64,000 bases of DNA from a virus, in the IMG/VR virus record IMGVR_UViG_3300033148_002693, positions 34,717-98,716 of that record; one strand, written 5' to 3'. The notes under the pieces are model-generated. The model saw only the letters and a program-made list of their open reading frames with translations. It was not told where the DNA came from and made no database searches. Of this stretch, positions 40,419 through 48,990 are shown in pieces (position 1 is the stretch's first letter; each line of letters starts with the position of its first letter). Position numbers and translations under genes: made by a program.

Positions 40419-40601
40419 GTGAGGGTTCAAGAAGTGACCAAAGACTATGCAATCGTAGACGGCGAGAAAATCTATTTCGATCAGCCATTTGATGAGGAGC
40501 CCGACAAGGCTGACTTCGAGCAGTGGTTGCATCGGATAGAGGACTTGCTGGAAACGCTCTTTTATTCAAAGGCAACCGATGAAGCTGTATACGCAAGCTG
40601 A
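40419..40601 (+). CDS. Small acidic protein upstream of tnpA
   Basis: GGAGGTG RBS; homologous to 48769-48990. Confidence 0.75.
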   Translation: MRVQEVTKDYAIVDGEKIYFDQPFDEEPDKADFEQWLHRIEDLLETLFYSKATDEAVYAS

Positions 40602-41226
40602 AGCCGCCGAGAGATTCGGCCTTAGTCGCCGTTCCCTCATTCGCTACGAGGCAGACGGGCTGATAGAACCAGTACGTACCCCTGGTGGTCAGCGGCGTTA
40701 TCCTGAGTCTGAGCTTCTGCGGCTCTACGGGCTTGAGACGAAAACCAAGCCGGATGGCGATAGAGCGGGATTGTACAGCCGTGTTTCTACCCGCAAGCAA
40801 GCCGACTCAGGCAATCTTGACCGACAAACGCAGCGGCTAAAGGACTATGCTCAAGCTGCTGGCTTCGACACTGTTGAGGTATATGAGGAAATCGCCAGTG
40901 GCTTGAACGAAAACCGCCGTCAGTTGCGGAAGTTGCTGAAGACAATCATTGCGGGTAAGGTTAATGTCGTGGTCGTGGAGTACAAAGACCGCCTTGCCCG
41001 CTTCGGCTATGCTTATCTTGAGTTGTTCTGTGAGTCTCACGGGGCGCGGATCGTAGCCATTGAAGAAAAAGCGTCTGACGACGAGAATGAAGAATTGGTC
41101 AAGGATTTGATTTCTGTTGTGACAAGTTTTTCAGCGAGACTTTATGGGCGGCGTGGGGGCCGTAAAGCAAAGAAGGAACTTGAGGAACAGTTGCGTGGCG
41201 AAGGTAAAGAGAGCGCACAAAATTAG
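40579..41226 (+). CDS. tnpA: IS607 TnpA serine recombinase
   Basis: MerR-type HTH (RTPGGQRRY), YSRVST catalytic Ser, EIASG, DRLARFG, ELVKDL. Confidence 0.95.
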   Translation: MKLYTQAEAAERFGLSRRSLIRYEADGLIEPVRTPGGQRRYPESELLRLYGLETKTKPDGDRAGLYSRVSTRKQADSGNLDRQTQRLKDYAQAAGFDTVEVYEEIASGLNENRRQLRKLLKTIIAGKVNVVVVEYKDRLARFGYAYLELFCESHGARIVAIEEKASDDENEELVKDLISVVTSFSARLYGRRGGRKAKKELEEQLRGEGKESAQN

Positions 41227-42439
41227 ATTGAATCCTACCACAGAGCAGGCGCAATGGTTGCTCCGGGCTTGCGGTGTGGCTAGGTTTTGTTACAACTGGG
41301 GACTCGAAAGATGGCGCGAGCAATACGAGGCCGGCGGGAAGCCGTCCGCCTATAAGCTCAAGAAGCAGTTCAACGCCATCAAGTCGGGGGAATATCCCTG
41401 GGTTTACGAGGTTGACAAGTGCGCTCAGGACACAGGGTTCCGCAATCTCGATATGGCCTTCAAGAACTTCTTTCGTCGGTGCAAGGGCGGTGATGCTAAG
41501 AAGGGCTATCCCCGCTTCAAATCTCGCAAGCATAGCAAGTTGTCATATCGGATAGATGGTTGTCGTGTTAGGTTAGACGGTCACTGGATCAAACTTCCCA
41601 AGTTGGACAAACCAATCAACATGACCGAGACCTTGCGATTTGACGGCGAAGTCAAATCGGTCACGATCTCCAAAGATGGTAAGCATTGGTATGCGGCAAT
41701 CAATGTAGAAGTCGAACCGCCAGAGCACGAGCATCTGCAAGGATCGGTTGGGATAGATTTGGGTATAAAGACGTTAGCTGTTCTCTCGGATGGCATACAG
41801 TATGAGAATCAAAGACTGCTACGCTCAGAACTGGGAAAGCTAAAGCGTCTGAACCGTGAGTTATCTCGTCGATCACAGGGCAGTAATCGCTGGAAGCGCA
41901 CCAAAGCAAAGCTGGCAAGATTGCACCGACGCATAGCCAATCGCCGATCAGACTACCAGCACAAGATGACGACAAAGATCGCTAGTACATACCGAGTTGT
42001 TGGCATTGAAGATTTGAACGTGGCGGGGATGCTCAGGAATCATCGTCTGGCCCTGTCTATCAGCGATGCGGGGTTTGGAGAAATTCGTCGCCAGCTATTA
42101 TACAAGAGCAAATGGTATGGTGGCGAGTTGGTGGAGATTGACCGCTTTTTTCCATCTAGTAAGCTCTGTCGGTTTTGCGGTTGCATCAATGATGGCTTAA
42201 CGCTGGCAGATCGGGAATGGGCTTGCGACTGTGGTGCTGTATTAGACCGGGATCGAAACGCGGCTATCAATATCGAAATGAAAGCACTGAGAATTTTGGG
42301 CCGGAGTGGGTTCACGGACCAAGTAAAAAACGGACGTGGACAGAATGTCAGACCCTTCGGGGCAGTTCTGAATGAAACGTCAAAAATGGTCGAGGAAAGG
42401 CGACCGTCCAAGCCGTGTCAGTTTGGCACAATTTGGTAA
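41195..42439 (+). CDS. tnpB: TnpB RNA-guided endonuclease
   Basis: HTH_OrfB start, GIDLG, IEDL, CRFC..CDC, DRDRNAAIN. Confidence 0.95.
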   Translation: MAKVKRAHKIRLNPTTEQAQWLLRACGVARFCYNWGLERWREQYEAGGKPSAYKLKKQFNAIKSGEYPWVYEVDKCAQDTGFRNLDMAFKNFFRRCKGGDAKKGYPRFKSRKHSKLSYRIDGCRVRLDGHWIKLPKLDKPINMTETLRFDGEVKSVTISKDGKHWYAAINVEVEPPEHEHLQGSVGIDLGIKTLAVLSDGIQYENQRLLRSELGKLKRLNRELSRRSQGSNRWKRTKAKLARLHRRIANRRSDYQHKMTTKIASTYRVVGIEDLNVAGMLRNHRLALSISDAGFGEIRRQLLYKSKWYGGELVEIDRFFPSSKLCRFCGCINDGLTLADREWACDCGAVLDRDRNAAINIEMKALRILGRSGFTDQVKNGRGQNVRPFGAVLNETSKMVEERRPSKPCQFGTIW

Positions 42440-42444
42440 ACCAG
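42295..42444 (+). ncRNA. omega RNA scaffold of element 1 (guide would begin at 42445)
   Basis: Blocks TTTGGGCCGG, CGTGGAC, ATGAAACG, GAAAGGCG, GGTAAACCAG shared in order with the element 2 right end. Confidence 0.65.
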
Positions 42445-42498
42445 CAGAAATGAACGAACTTAAGGTACGATTCGACGAGGCATTGAAAGGGGTGCAAT

Positions 42499-43038
42499 GT
42501 GACAGAGATTGGTGAGAAAATAATTGAACAGCATCGATACAAGTGTATAGATTGTGGGAGGGAAGAGTTATCTGATAAGTGTAATTCACCCCCTGATGGG
42601 TGGTGGGCTATAGGGAGTTTTGATTCTTTCGGTATTGAAGGTTATCGGTGTCCAAAATGTGCAAAAAAGGAGAAGATGCGAATGATGGAAAGTAAGGTTG
42701 ATTCAACCCGGCTTGATGAATTGGAAGCGAGGCTTGATAGGCATGATGCCAAGCTAGAGAATATCTGGCATTCAAGACAGCGTCATGCTCCTACTATTGC
42801 AATTATCATAAGACGTCTTGATGAGTTGGCAAGCAAGGTTGATAGGCTAGAGAAATATAACGTATTGACTGGTATTAATGAAAAGGTAGAGAAATATCTA
42901 TATGAGTGTGGCGATTGCGGGGATATGGAATTGTCTGATGTATGCGATCTGCCTCCGCTTGGATGGTGGACGATAGAGAGAGATTCGTGTGGGAACAAAA
43001 GTTACAGATGTCCAAAATGTACAGAGGAGAAAATGTAA
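42499..43038 (+). CDS. Protein with two repeated Cys4 zinc ribbons around a coiled coil
   Basis: YxCxDCG..ELSD.C..PP.GWW.I...YRCPKC occurs twice. Confidence 0.7.
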   Translation: MTEIGEKIIEQHRYKCIDCGREELSDKCNSPPDGWWAIGSFDSFGIEGYRCPKCAKKEKMRMMESKVDSTRLDELEARLDRHDAKLENIWHSRQRHAPTIAIIIRRLDELASKVDRLEKYNVLTGINEKVEKYLYECGDCGDMELSDVCDLPPLGWWTIERDSCGNKSYRCPKCTEEKM

Positions 43039-43521
43039 ATGACAGAGAGTAAAGTTGATTACGGAAAAGTGAATAACGAATTACGAGAGCGCTTCAACAA
43101 GGCGCTGAAGTCGCTGTACTTGGCGGTAGAGGAATTGGTCGAAAAGAATAAAGATGTTGGCTTACGTCACGCATGGTATCTGGATTCTGGAAGGACGGGG
43201 TTCAACCTGGAGATGCGCCGACCGGAAGAGGTCGTGGAAGTGATGTTTGACTCGTTCAACTGGCCCGATGAGTATTGGGCGTATGTCGATGCCGCCTTAA
43301 AACATCAAGCCGAACTTGTCGATGAGTATCAGGCTATTTCCAAGCGGCACGGCAGAACGAGCGAGCAGGCGATGGCTGCGAAGGCCAGGGTCAACGGGTT
43401 CAAGTTGTTTATGACTTGTCCGGTTTGGGAAGAGGCAAGAGCGGAATTTGCAGACCTTGAGAGATGTGGCGGTGACGACAAGCGGCGTCTTGATTTGAGG
43501 GATTGGCTATTGGAGGCCTAG
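43039..43521 (+). CDS. Hypothetical protein
   Basis: GAGGAG RBS; coupled to upstream gene. Confidence 0.65.
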   Translation: MTESKVDYGKVNNELRERFNKALKSLYLAVEELVEKNKDVGLRHAWYLDSGRTGFNLEMRRPEEVVEVMFDSFNWPDEYWAYVDAALKHQAELVDEYQAISKRHGRTSEQAMAAKARVNGFKLFMTCPVWEEARAEFADLERCGGDDKRRLDLRDWLLEA

Positions 43522-48158: not shown

Positions 48159-48167
48159 GGGGGTATC

Positions 48168-48413
48168 ATGGAATACGGCGAACCGTGGATGGTCTCTTTT
48201 GACGGAGTACAGATATGGGATGCGCATGAAAAGAGCGTTCTGCAATGGCTTAATGAAAACGGTATATTGCCACACATCGTGCGGTGTGTGAATGCTTGTG
48301 CTGGCATGAGTGATGAGGAGCTAGATGACGCAATCGAGTTCGGTGGTATCAAGACAATCCTTGATTCGTTTGAGAGTGAAGTCGAAATGGTTCGCAAATT
48401 AGTGAGCGTGTGA
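48168..48413 (+). CDS. Hypothetical protein (paralog of 60474)
   Basis: CVNACAGMSDEEL motif shared. Confidence 0.65.
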   Translation: MEYGEPWMVSFDGVQIWDAHEKSVLQWLNENGILPHIVRCVNACAGMSDEELDDAIEFGGIKTILDSFESEVEMVRKLVSV

Positions 48414-48718
48414 AAGGAGAAGTCATGAACGTAAAGCGTATGCCGATCAAAGAGTTTCGTGAGTTTGGGTTCTTGCAAGAGGTGAATCGTCAATTCTTCC
48501 ATCCGATTGGGCTTGCGTTGGAAGTCTTGGTTGACGAAGATGGTAATGAGTACCTGGGTGGTGTTTGGGATTGTCGTGACGATCCAGAGGGTATCAAGTT
48601 CGATAAGATTGACATCGAAAAGATGAATCGTGTGCGCGAGTTTCAGGTGAAACGTTGGGGAATTCGTTATGATGTGTTGGGGTATCTCTATCAGGAGGGT
48701 GAAACAGTTTCCGAATAA
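48410..48718 (+). CDS. Hypothetical phage protein, last codons supplied by the IS
   Basis: EFREFGFLQEVNRQFFHPIGLALEV...WDCRDDPEG. Confidence 0.7.
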   Translation: MKGEVMNVKRMPIKEFREFGFLQEVNRQFFHPIGLALEVLVDEDGNEYLGGVWDCRDDPEGIKFDKIDIEKMNRVREFQVKRWGIRYDVLGYLYQEGETVSE

Positions 48719-48751
48719 CTGACTATACCGCCACAAACCTACCCATACCAT

Positions 48752-48780
48752 TTGACAAGGAGTGAGAGATGTGTTATACT
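48752..48780 (+). promoter_or_regulatory. IS607 left-end promoter
   Basis: TTGACA-N17-TATACT with TG. Confidence 0.7.
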
Positions 48781-48990
48781 GTAGATGAGATTGGTGAGAA
48801 TTACGTGGTGGTTAACGGTGGGCGAATTGAAGTTGATCCGCCATTTGAATCTGTACCAGACAAGCAAAATTATGAAAATTGGCTGAACGGGGTTATAACT
48901 GATGCTCTTACGGCAGTCAGAAGTCGAGCAGAAATACCGAATCTCCAAGACTACCTTGCACAGATGGATCGAGGATGGGGTTCTGACTAA
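48769..48990 (+). CDS. Small protein upstream of tnpA
   Basis: AAGGAG RBS; homologous to 40419-40601. Confidence 0.7.
   Translation: MCYTVDEIGENYVVVNGGRIEVDPPFESVPDKQNYENWLNGVITDALTAVRSRAEIPNLQDYLAQMDRGWGSD

Follow-up and report, generated by a model that had tools for sequence, protein, structure and literature searches.

A conserved small gene overlapping the start of tnpA in one clade of IS607 elements, probably encoding a regulator of transposition

The window analysed here, a 64 000-nt stretch of a 99-kb phage genome (IMG/VR record IMGVR_UViG_3300033148_002693), contains two mutually divergent IS607 elements, at ∼40321–42444 and ∼48696–50741; all features described below are on the + strand. 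Element 1 follows a host GGAGG at 40319–40323, which is similar to a Shine–Dalgarno (SD) sequence and holds the AG core (40321–40322); homology to other elements of the same type (type 1) starts directly after it. The non-coding part of the left end (40323–40418), a block conserved across 20 aligned type-1 left ends, has subterminal repeats of the GT(A/G)(C/T)CAA type, presumed TnpA sites whose binding role is assigned by analogy (PMC6188088). Next come the small gene orfS1 (40419–40601), tnpA1 (40579–41226), coding for an IS607 serine transposase with a MerR-like helix-turn-helix (HTH) and a resolvase catalytic domain, and tnpB1 (41144–42439), coding for a homologue of RNA-guided nucleases; the TAA stop codon of tnpB1 (42437–42439) falls within the right-end motif GGTAAACCAG. 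The right end (42415–42444; GTGTCAGTTTGGCACAATTTGGTAAACC-AG) carries the inverted motif TTTGGCACA / TTTGGTAAA and terminates in the AG core at 42443–42444, with a host ATG next, at 42451. In element 2 the host GGAGG occupies 48694–48698 (AG core, 48696–48697) and the non-coding part of the left end 48698–48768 (consensus ...CAGTTTCCGAATAACTGAC... from 25 aligned type-2 left ends); orfS2 (48769–48990), tnpA2 (48902–49510; IS607 serine transposase) and tnpB2 (49497–50723; TnpB) lead to the right end (50710–50741), which reads ...TTCGGTAAACC-AG with the core at 50740–50741, and the start of a host gene (ATG ATG) is at 50744/50747.

Homology between independent insertions begins directly 3′ of the host GGAG(G), ∼95 nt (type 1) or ∼70 nt (type 2) before the start codon of the small gene; since this is upstream of both start codons, both orfS genes are inside the elements. 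AG, and not GG, is the sole dinucleotide common to both junctions of element 1, as well as of loci L023 and L037. We read the core as AG within a GGAG(G) target, whereas characterized IS607 members have GG. No target-site duplication was seen in the flanks of either window copy, and the flanks of both copies, when rejoined in silico, gave intact ATGA stop/start overlaps. A true empty site was not found; in the flanking gene's nearest relative, AGGAG-N7-ATG occupies the corresponding position.

Both TnpAs scored above the cut-off of NF033518 (201.8 and 181.9 bits; cut-off 110), with the MerR/HTH_17 domain in residues 3–50 and the Resolvase domain in residues 62–193, and both TnpBs matched OrfB_IS605 and Cas12f1-like_TNB, with PF01385, PF07282 and PF12323 present in both elements. 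Judged by these domain matches, the neighbours of both orfS genes are genuine IS607 genes. Canonical IS607 elements (IS607 of H. pylori, IS1535 and ISC1926; PMC6188088) have in common with the orfS elements a tnpB overlapping tnpA, short subterminal repeats and a TnpA in which a MerR-like HTH at the N-terminus is followed by a catalytic domain and helix E at the C-terminus. They probably also share the lack of terminal inverted repeats and target duplication, and exchange at a 2-bp core present in both ends and in the target. However, the canonical members are two-gene elements, as an earlier sequence-only reading of this DNA had stated; the literature we searched agrees, describing IS607 with two ORFs only and a TnpA that needs no helper (PMC6188088, Chen et al. 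2018). The orfS elements have three genes, and their left end is ∼70–95 nt longer, housing orfS. As a two-ORF content is a descriptive rather than a mechanistic feature, they stay in the IS607 family.

The product of orfS1, the type-1 member of the small-ORF family, has 60 aa (GTG start, pI 4.2), and that of orfS2, the type-2 member, has 73 aa (ATG start, pI 4.1); both are acidic. Each gene has its own ribosome-binding site (RBS), GGAGG at 40407–40411, 7 nt 5′ of the GTG, and AAGGAG at 48757–48762, 6 nt 5′ of the ATG. Each overlaps the start of tnpA, by 23 nt (stop codon included) in element 1 and by 89 nt in element 2, where residues 45–73 are encoded in the overlap. The sequence-only reading had pointed to these two ORFs, and we confirmed both.

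It had also claimed that the two proteins align in spite of diverged DNA, implying selection at the protein level, and this claim is borne out. The proteins are 36% identical across 50 aa (E = 2e-12) versus 45% identity of DNA over the aligned stretch, with values of 0.44, 0.64 and 0.28 for the three codon positions, the last placing third positions at random level. The dN/dS ratio, which had been proposed as a check and was computed here over non-overlapping codons only (42–51 codons), was 0.13 for type 1 (CI 0.09–0.18; 15 sequences) and 0.10 for type 2 (CI 0.06–0.16; 30 sequences), far from the values of the remaining two sense frames (0.9–2.4, with 56–163 stops). There was no stop in the orfS frame of 45 distinct sequences, versus dozens in every other frame, and none of the antisense frames was consistently open; variation in type-2 orfS was periodic by codon position (0.14, 0.07, 0.36). 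By these patterns of substitution orfS is a genuine protein-coding third gene under purifying selection. One could argue that its conservation reflects a constraint at the DNA level (TnpA sites, promoter), given its location in a transposon end and the overlap of the type-2 −10 element with codons 3–4. However, the repeat motifs are located upstream of the orfS start codon, and such a reading, contradicted by dN/dS, codon periodicity and the stops in other frames, is hardly credible.

We found >150 clusters of orfS proteins, falling into three subtypes. In the ∼80 loci fetched, orfS was directly 5′ of an IS607 tnpA or within a deletion remnant of such an element, and in nearly all of them the tnpA start fell inside the 3′ end of orfS; the same arrangement is present in the third subtype (L085) and in G267, the sole non-seed Chloroflexota genome with orfS. 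Neither in these loci nor in the Chloroflexota genomes was orfS found away from an IS607 left end; co-occurrence with tnpA, which the sequence-only reading had suggested counting, is thus a strict linkage. No fusion of orfS with TnpA appeared in a profile search of 1.84 billion representatives; longer matches of the search were repeat proteins (HEAT, DUF7507, LRR/RHS), treated as spurious, and a search for longer proteins gave only an over-called upstream ORF. IS607 tnpA was present in 28 of the 301 Chloroflexota genomes sampled and orfS in two; 29 other Chloroflexota IS607 loci all lacked orfS. In a quick tree the orfS-bearing TnpAs were grouped together by a branch with an SH-aLRT of 84. Judged by this distribution, orfS is confined to one TnpA clade, whereas the earlier wording had suggested a feature general to IS607. 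The gene 3′ of tnpA is not constant: it may code for a canonical or a divergent TnpB, be an ORF that lacks Pfam matches, or be LAGLIDADG-like. As orfS accompanies tnpA whatever gene follows, a modulator specific to TnpB is disfavoured. Viral contigs are numerous among the carriers; bacterial carriers include an Anaerolineae MAG with >20 orfS copies or fragments, an isolate which its source names Chloroflexus, Latescibacterota, Parcubacteria and Hakubella.

Each left end has one promoter-like site, identified as a match to the consensus only, the hosts being uncultured. In element 1 the site (40377–40405; TTGACG-N17-TATACT, TG-extended) has a predicted start at ∼40411–40413, inside the SD of orfS1. 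In element 2 the −35 of the site (48752–48780; TTGACA-N17-TATACT, TG-extended) overlaps the orfS2 RBS, the ATG sits in the spacer, and the predicted start, ∼48786–48788, is 3′ of the ATG. A single site of this kind is unremarkable, because shuffles give about as many (0.5 and 1.2 expected in the two regions); what counts is conservation across the family. Of 18 distinct type-1 left ends, 14 have a −10 that ends 12–14 nt 5′ of the start codon; of 45 distinct type-2 left ends, 37 have one that ends 12 nt 3′ of the start codon's first base. The previously noted position of the RBS or start codon at or 5′ of the predicted transcription start is, therefore, real and conserved. Transcription from the element's own site would begin at or after the start of orfS, though a type-1 mRNA with a short leader could still be translated.

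The orfS protein (55–75 aa in the family, acidic) is predicted to have three short β-strands, a conserved (D/E)PPF loop and a long amphipathic helix with an invariant W-L pair; the mean pLDDT of the model, 73.5, is only moderate. Searches of Pfam and NCBIfam gave no match, PHROG gave a single match at E = 0.26, and Foldseek searches against PDB and BFVD gave none at E ≤ 0.001 (best VIA-align Z = 3.9), an outcome that does not prove a new fold. The structure neighbours in the Atlas were unnamed clusters of 60–62 aa, mostly viral.

In complex prediction, orfS with TnpA scored 0.64 versus 0.11 for the best control, the two unrelated partners having scored 0.00 and 0.11; 58 of 80 solved complexes attained the 0.64 mark, as did 2 of 110 mismatched pairs, counts that are rough because alignments of our own were used. 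The runs agreed in at least 75% of contacts, with partner pLDDT of at least 71. On the TnpA side the predicted interface is made of residues 170–171, 174–176 and 178–187, and on the orfS side of residues 3, 13, 15, 20–27, 30, 35, 38–39, 42–43, 46–47 and 50, including the most conserved residues of the family. The complex was modelled 1:1, whereas TnpA acts as dimers and filaments, and an exposed amphipathic helix can draw any helical partner; read with these caveats, the prediction supports binding of orfS to helix E of TnpA.

The first half of helix E corresponds to ∼residues 170–187 of TnpA2. [quoted passage not shown] Helix E gates the activity of the IS607 transposase: it blocks the active site and has to be rearranged before the paired-end complex can form (PMC6188088). 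The model of TnpA2 alone has a low-confidence helix (171–185) followed by a coil tail. Type-2 TnpAs differ from canonical IS607 in the short tail, 11–18 polar residues, beyond the helix E turn; in TnpAs without orfS this tail comprises 18–31 residues with hydrophobic positions.

Since the structure model sets orfS on the part of TnpA that switches it on and off, orfS is probably a regulator of IS607 transposition, hitherto undescribed. The best explanation, one we hold tentatively and at slightly less than an even chance, is that orfS is a TnpA-binding regulator which is made from read-through transcripts and dampens transposition, working jointly with the serine transposase. We infer that the protein would be produced chiefly from transcripts entering from the host operon, in view of the positions of the promoter-like sites and of the placement and orientation of the elements relative to host genes (described below). 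On such transcripts, ribosomes translating orfS would pass over the tnpA start, one way of dampening transposition. The protein would then provide a second way of dampening transposition by holding helix E, with its own helix packed against the first half of the latter; helix E, which folds over the active site in solved IS607 transposases, has to be remodelled before end pairing and cutting. It is possible, if doubtful, that the orfS helix is an in-trans stand-in for the second half of a split helix E, locking or completing the active-site lid, and that orfS is translated only from read-through, the element sensing an active operon between RBS and start codon and adjusting its transposition. 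Replacement of a missing second half would fit type 2 best, because the tail of type-1 TnpAs (KELEEQL...) is somewhat longer. Among the functions proposed earlier (a read-through-sensing repressor of tnpA translation, a directionality factor, an acidic TnpB modulator), a partner of TnpA is favoured by the complex prediction, which passes its controls on helix E, and the TnpB-specific modulator is disfavoured by the varying downstream gene.

The evidence fits inhibition as well as activation. As helix E must be remodelled for paired-end complex formation and catalysis (PMC6188088), a protein binding it could equally release the block: orfS may open an auto-inhibited TnpA dimer via helix E, in the manner of a recombination directionality factor (RDF), and promote end pairing or excision, so that an element inserted into a highly transcribed operon would leave by precise excision and move elsewhere. 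The predicted interface, being the same helix E, suits this role, as does the place of orfS, since many directionality factors are small genes adjoining the recombinase gene. Excision would restore the host site if, as the flanks suggest, the element leaves no target duplication; the rejoined flanks of both window copies have the ATGA overlaps intact. On the other hand, many insertion sequences shield themselves from outside activation instead of making use of it, and translation of orfS would place ribosomes over the start of tnpA, which lowers TnpA output from the same mRNAs. Moreover, classical IS607 TnpA works without a helper (PMC6188088). On balance, an activating role appears rather unlikely.

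That orfS modulates TnpB or the guide RNA, or is a small acidic cargo (e.g. anti-defence, DNA mimic) of elements common in phages, would agree with its pI of ∼4.1–4.2, the many viral carriers and the mostly viral Atlas neighbours; yet its place and the tnpA overlap are kept even with a non-canonical downstream gene, it is present in bacterial genomes as well, and in the loci and genomes searched it was never away from IS607 left ends. We regard such targets as quite unlikely. A role mainly in cis, as an upstream ORF steering tnpA translation by coupling or occlusion while the peptide has no partner, could be suggested by the overlap with the tnpA start in all three subtypes and by the weak SD-like sequences, the only ones preceding tnpA. 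Still, dN/dS of ∼0.1 over the non-overlapping codons and 36% identity in spite of randomized third positions indicate selection on protein sequence and not on mere translation; the orfS stop, 20 to ∼90 nt beyond the tnpA ATG, makes a poor geometry for termination–reinitiation; and the predicted complex with TnpA passes its controls. A mainly cis-acting orfS is, thus, very unlikely.

Few transposons are as widespread as the IS607 elements, which harbour TnpB, from which Cas12 descends; how helix E is remodelled to activate their transposase is, to our knowledge, not understood. If the proposed role is true, orfS would be the first known example of an accessory regulator acting on an IS607-type serine transposase, and a small conserved protein predicted to bind helix E would be a natural handle on serine transposase switching. 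The RDFs of large serine recombinases (TP901-1 Orf7, Bxb1 gp47, phiC31 gp3) are small proteins whose genes adjoin that of the recombinase; they are believed to control synapsis by engaging a helical regulatory element of this enzyme. The orfS protein is likewise small, encoded beside a serine recombinase and predicted to bind a regulatory helix; however, the family and structure searches revealed no sequence or fold similarity to RDFs, and its recombinase, a small IS607 transposase, lacks a coiled-coil domain. The proposed logic, low transposase activity when host transcription enters, resembles that of Tn5 Inh, IS1 InsA and IS10 fold-back inhibition, which inhibit transposition or protect from outside transcription; these rely on truncated or alternative transposases or on RNA structure, whereas orfS would be a separate, unrelated small protein. 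Current annotation misses this gene across a whole clade of IS607 elements, many of them in phages.

We also observed that the elements are placed directly 3′ of a host GGAG, often a few bases 5′ of a gene start, and are mostly co-oriented with the upstream gene. The longest ORF of the upstream flank was on the element's strand in 31 of 40 distinct flanks, and an ATG at most 20 nt into the right flank opened an ORF in 20 of 33 distinct right flanks. This pattern matters for reading gene maps of phages and metagenomes.

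The two IS607-family insertion sequences, element 1 (~40321-42444) and element 2 (~48696-50741), lie on the + strand, as do nearly all genes of the window (bases 34717-98716 of a 98.7-kb source record with direct terminal repeats, rated complete). Their transposases, TnpA1 and TnpA2, scored 201.8 and 181.9 bits on the NCBIfam IS607 model (cut-off 110), and both TnpB1 and TnpB2 matched OrfB_IS605, Cas12f1-like_TNB and HTH_OrfB_IS605. As the TnpAs are only 43% identical and the TnpBs only 45%, the elements are, by sequence comparison, old relatives rather than recent copies. An Rfam scan of the whole window produced a single match, a tRNA at 35428-35498; no family (e.g. 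a RAGATH-18-type TnpB guide scaffold) reached gathering score in either element (41144-42444 and 49497-50741).

Each left end carries a small ORF at the position named in the sequence-only reading: orfS1 (40419-40601, + strand, GTG start, 60 aa) and orfS2 (48769-48990, + strand, ATG start, 73 aa). Other claims of that reading held as well: each ORF has a strong, properly spaced ribosome-binding site (RBS) of its own, GGAGG 7 nt upstream of orfS1 and AAGGAG 6 nt upstream of orfS2; each overlaps the tnpA start, its end lying beyond the tnpA ATG by 20 nt (orfS1) and 86 nt (orfS2), stop codon not counted; and the two proteins align despite diverged DNA, with 36% identity over 50 residues (E = 2e-12) and 45% identity of the DNA. 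Identity per codon position was 0.44, 0.64 and 0.28; thus, third positions are random between orfS1 and orfS2. The two small proteins have an acidic pI of 4.1-4.2, whereas the TnpAs, with a pI of about 9, are basic. We also saw stop codons in all three frames of both left ends, a feature set aside since its chance is ~40% by rough estimate.

A profile built from orfS1 and orfS2 matched 64 clusters in a 5.8-billion-protein collection and 32 sequences among 1.84 billion representatives, 27 being proteins of 39-108 aa and five being long repeat proteins; a third, more distant subtype (type 3, orfS1 and orfS2 being types 1 and 2) added about 100 further clusters. The five long multi-stretch matches (P0072, P0082, P0088, P0091 and P0092) were judged spurious; the four that were domain-scanned gave HEAT, DUF7507 or LRR/RHS. 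We fetched about 80 orfS loci from genomes, metagenomes and viral contigs and computed dN/dS solely on orfS codons outside the tnpA overlap, for 15 distinct type 1 and 30 distinct type 2 sequences. In the orfS frame dN/dS was 0.13 for type 1 (bootstrap CI 0.09-0.18) and 0.10 for type 2 (CI 0.06-0.16), with no stops in either type; the other two sense frames gave 0.90 and 1.25 (56 and 82 stops) for type 1 and 1.51 and 2.43 (107 and 163 stops) for type 2, and none of the antisense frames was consistently open. Variability per codon position in type 2 was 0.14, 0.07 and 0.36. The selection at protein level proposed earlier is therefore borne out, with no dN/dS value near 1 in the orfS frame. Frame-specific dN/dS, stop counts and codon-position variability rule out both a transposon end conserved purely at the DNA level and an ORF for which mere translation would suffice. 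We consider it nearly certain that orfS is a real third gene of one IS607 clade.

Linkage to IS607 tnpA, the subject of the proposed co-occurrence check, was found at nearly all loci with enough sequence, the tnpA start lying inside the 3′ end of orfS (tblastn table), and the exceptions are decayed elements; the type 3 locus L085 has the same overlapping arrangement. The gene downstream of the orfS-tnpA pair varies, being a canonical TnpB, a divergent TnpB (L039 and L085), an ORF with no Pfam match (L003, L020 and L069) or a LAGLIDADG-like ORF (L070); thus, orfS goes with tnpA. No fusion of orfS to TnpA was seen among the profile matches (1.84 billion representatives) or in a search for longer proteins, whose only find, P0179, is an over-called upstream ORF.

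Among decayed elements, internal deletions have joined orfS to a tnpB fragment (L005, L025, L042 and P0085) or to the region of the C-terminal TnpA helix, helix E (P0063 and L019); in P0063 residues 1-33 of orfS are followed by VEDILTVIVSFSS... from this region. These recurrent deletions yield miniature derivatives keeping both ends. In L033 and L040 (3989-6133) a solo left end places the first 61 orfS codons in frame with a host ORF of roughly 650 aa, which has QxxDGGWG-type repeats and by eye looks like a terpene or squalene-hopene cyclase. Loci L064-L068 have a truncated left end, and L086 is an element remnant in a 436-kb viral contig.

In 301 evenly sampled Chloroflexota genomes IS607 TnpA was detected above cut-off in 28 and orfS in only two, the seed MAG and G267, where orfS is directly upstream of a TnpA match; none of the 29 IS607 loci fetched from other Chloroflexota genomes had it. 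The seed MAG (Anaerolineae MAG CSSed11_269R1, 5 Mb; loci L136-L144) contains orfS in at least 20 copies or fragments, of which many lie at contig ends and several include stops; this looks like an element burst followed by decay. A quick maximum-likelihood tree of 63 TnpAs placed the ones with orfS on one side of a branch (SH-aLRT 84), in a sampling biased by collecting the orfS-bearing rows via orfS and the remainder from one phylum. Carriers are almost all uncultured; by record title they include Latescibacterota, Anaerolineae, Parcubacteria and Hakubella, by source names MAGs of Clostridiaceae, Actinomycetota and WS2, and one cluster comes from Chloroflexus sp. Y-396-1 (the source's own naming). 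No homologue was found by tblastn in 50 697 GenBank phage records (INPHARED) or 72 556 plasmids (PLSDB). The literature searched still calls IS607 a two-ORF element (PMC6188088), in agreement with the sequence-only reading that it is usually described as tnpA plus tnpB, and contained nothing relevant on a third ORF, ISfinder lying outside that search. The two-ORF description may be explained by the uncultured status of most carriers and the absence of orfS from phage and plasmid records.

When left flanks of independent insertions were aligned, unrelated host sequence extended up to GGAG(G) and was followed by conserved element sequence, which begins upstream of the orfS start codon by about 95 nt in type 1 and 70 nt in type 2. 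As homology begins upstream of orfS, its RBS and a promoter-like site, all three are internal to the element. Right ends terminate in TTTGGTAAACC-AG, with G as the first host base in 30 of 33 distinct flanks. The core of characterised IS607 is GG (PMC6188088); the exchange core of the present elements we read from the junctions as AG, not GG, since the two junctions of element 1 have no other dinucleotide in common; the same is true of L023 and L037.

At the junctions in the window (40319-40323, 42443-42451, 48694-48698 and 50740-50747) and at loci L003-L085, elements of this clade are always immediately preceded by a host GGAG(G); the target is therefore a ribosome-binding site. Most point the same way as the upstream gene, and a host start codon often follows 3-15 nt further on. 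An ATG within 20 nt opens an ORF in 20 of 33 distinct right flanks, and of 40 distinct upstream flanks 31 have their longest ORF on the same strand as the element (a crude measure). Rejoining the flanks of element 1 gives ...ATT GAG AAG GAG CAG AAA TGA, where the host ATG (42451) falls within an ATGA overlap, and rejoining those of element 2 gives ...CAG GAG GAA TGA, also with an ATGA overlap (host start 50744/50747). Given these stop/start overlaps, each element appears to have inserted ahead of a translationally coupled host gene, between its Shine-Dalgarno sequence (SD) and its start codon. When an IS-free relative of the phage was sought, the only find was a homologue (57% identical) of the gene to the right of element 2; it comes from a different viral contig, with AGGAG-N7-ATG at that place and a different upstream neighbour. 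The search found nothing for the gene to the left of element 1. The GGAG(G) motif may double as the TAM of TnpB. Within 42435-42451, the conserved right-end motif GGTAAACCAG contains the tnpB1 stop (TAA, 42437-42439), and the displaced host ATG follows 11 nt later; the host gene could therefore be re-coupled to tnpB1 translation. The corresponding distance between tnpB stop and host ATG in element 2 is 20 nt.

The left ends share a TG-extended TTGACA-N17-TATAYT site whose position is conserved. In type 1 its end lies 12-14 nt upstream of the start codon (14 of 18 distinct left ends), with the predicted transcription start inside the SD; in type 2 its end lies 12 nt past the first base of the start codon (37 of 45 distinct left ends), with the predicted start after the ATG; the site of L085 resembles type 2 by eye. 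The earlier claim that the RBS or start of orfS lies at or upstream of the predicted promoter start thus applies to both types. If this site is the element's promoter, its transcripts would encode TnpA without orfS in type 2 and would express orfS only poorly in type 1, and only transcripts entering from the host operon would contain the complete orfS cistron and its RBS. From where the elements insert and how they are oriented, such read-through is expected to be common. With the promoter predicted, we regard it as an evenly balanced proposition that orfS is made mainly from read-through transcripts.

The AlphaFold2 model of orfS (52-sequence alignment; mean pLDDT 73.5, 80-86 over the first 40 residues) has three short strands (5-8, 12-15 and 18-21), a conserved (D/E)PPF...P(D)K loop, a long helix (32-53) bearing an invariant W38-L39 and a weaker helix (57-69) in the part overlapping tnpA. 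No family was found for it in Pfam, PHROGs or NCBIfam; Foldseek gave no match at E <= 0.001 in PDB or BFVD, the best VIA-align Z was 3.9 and an Atlas feature search returned no usable match. Its Atlas structure neighbours are unnamed clusters of 60-62 aa, mostly viral.

A complex of TnpA2 (28-row alignment) with orfS2 (52-row alignment) was predicted with a score of 0.64, against 0.11 for the best of three controls; 58 of 80 solved complexes attained this mark, as did 2 of 110 mismatched pairs, counts that are rough as own alignments were used. Runs agreed in at least 75% of contacts, and partner pLDDT was at least 71. The AlphaFold-multimer-type check proposed earlier thus supports binding of orfS2 to TnpA2, as a prediction and not as a demonstration. 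As no comparable complex is known to us among solved structures, a pass through recall of a training structure is unlikely.

To the predicted interface TnpA contributes residues 170-171, 174-176 and 178-187; orfS contributes its strands, its PPF loop and, from the long helix, one face (35, 38, 39, 42, 43, 46, 47 and 50). The helix E region of ISC1926 TnpA, through the GMRS turn and beyond, is the aligned counterpart of TnpA 166-195. In IS607-family TnpAs a four-residue turn splits helix E, which forms a four-helix bundle in the dimer with the catalytic serines occluded (Chen et al. 2018, PMC6188088). After the turn type 2 TnpAs have a tail of 11-18 polar residues (e.g. ARGGRKRKENSDAESA); in TnpAs lacking orfS this tail is 18-31 residues long and includes hydrophobic positions. 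TnpA2 modelled alone shows a low-confidence helix (171-185) and a coil tail. From the interface, the short polar tails and the lone model, we hypothesize that the orfS helix may substitute for the second half of helix E, an idea that fits type 2 better than type 1.

We lean towards orfS acting through TnpA. It is known that helix E must be remodelled and that cross-linked E helices block paired-end complex formation, as well as that deletion of helix E nearly abolishes it (Chen et al. 2018, PMC6188088). On read-through transcripts, ribosomes on orfS would also traverse the weak tnpA initiation region. A net inhibitory effect of orfS is a possibility that we put forward tentatively; an activating effect, similar to that of a recombination directionality factor, seems to us rather unlikely.

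Several variant elements deserve mention. In L070, a type 1 element in a viral contig, the ORF following tnpA (4672-5547) is LAGLIDADG-like (PF14528, E = 2.2e-7, 31.5 bits, cut-off 22.5) and occupies the place of tnpB; the RNA-guided nuclease may thus have been replaced here by a protein-guided homing nuclease. The ORFs with no Pfam match (300-436 aa; L003:5705-6970, L020:4795-5694 and L069:4712-6019) may be very divergent TnpB-like nucleases; those of L003 and L020 have a common N-terminal TIQG(V/T)LI motif, and that of L003 also a GVDLNPSG stretch. The TnpA of L039 (273-890), on a long branch in the tree, has a type 2 N-terminal part and a helix E region like that of an orfS-less Chloroflexota group (L123, L125 and L128), and may be recombinant. 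A second right-end motif (...TTTGGTAAACCAGG) is found about 970 bp past the first in L054 (6917) and L084 (6236); this points to a neighbouring truncated element or to tandem insertion into the new junction.
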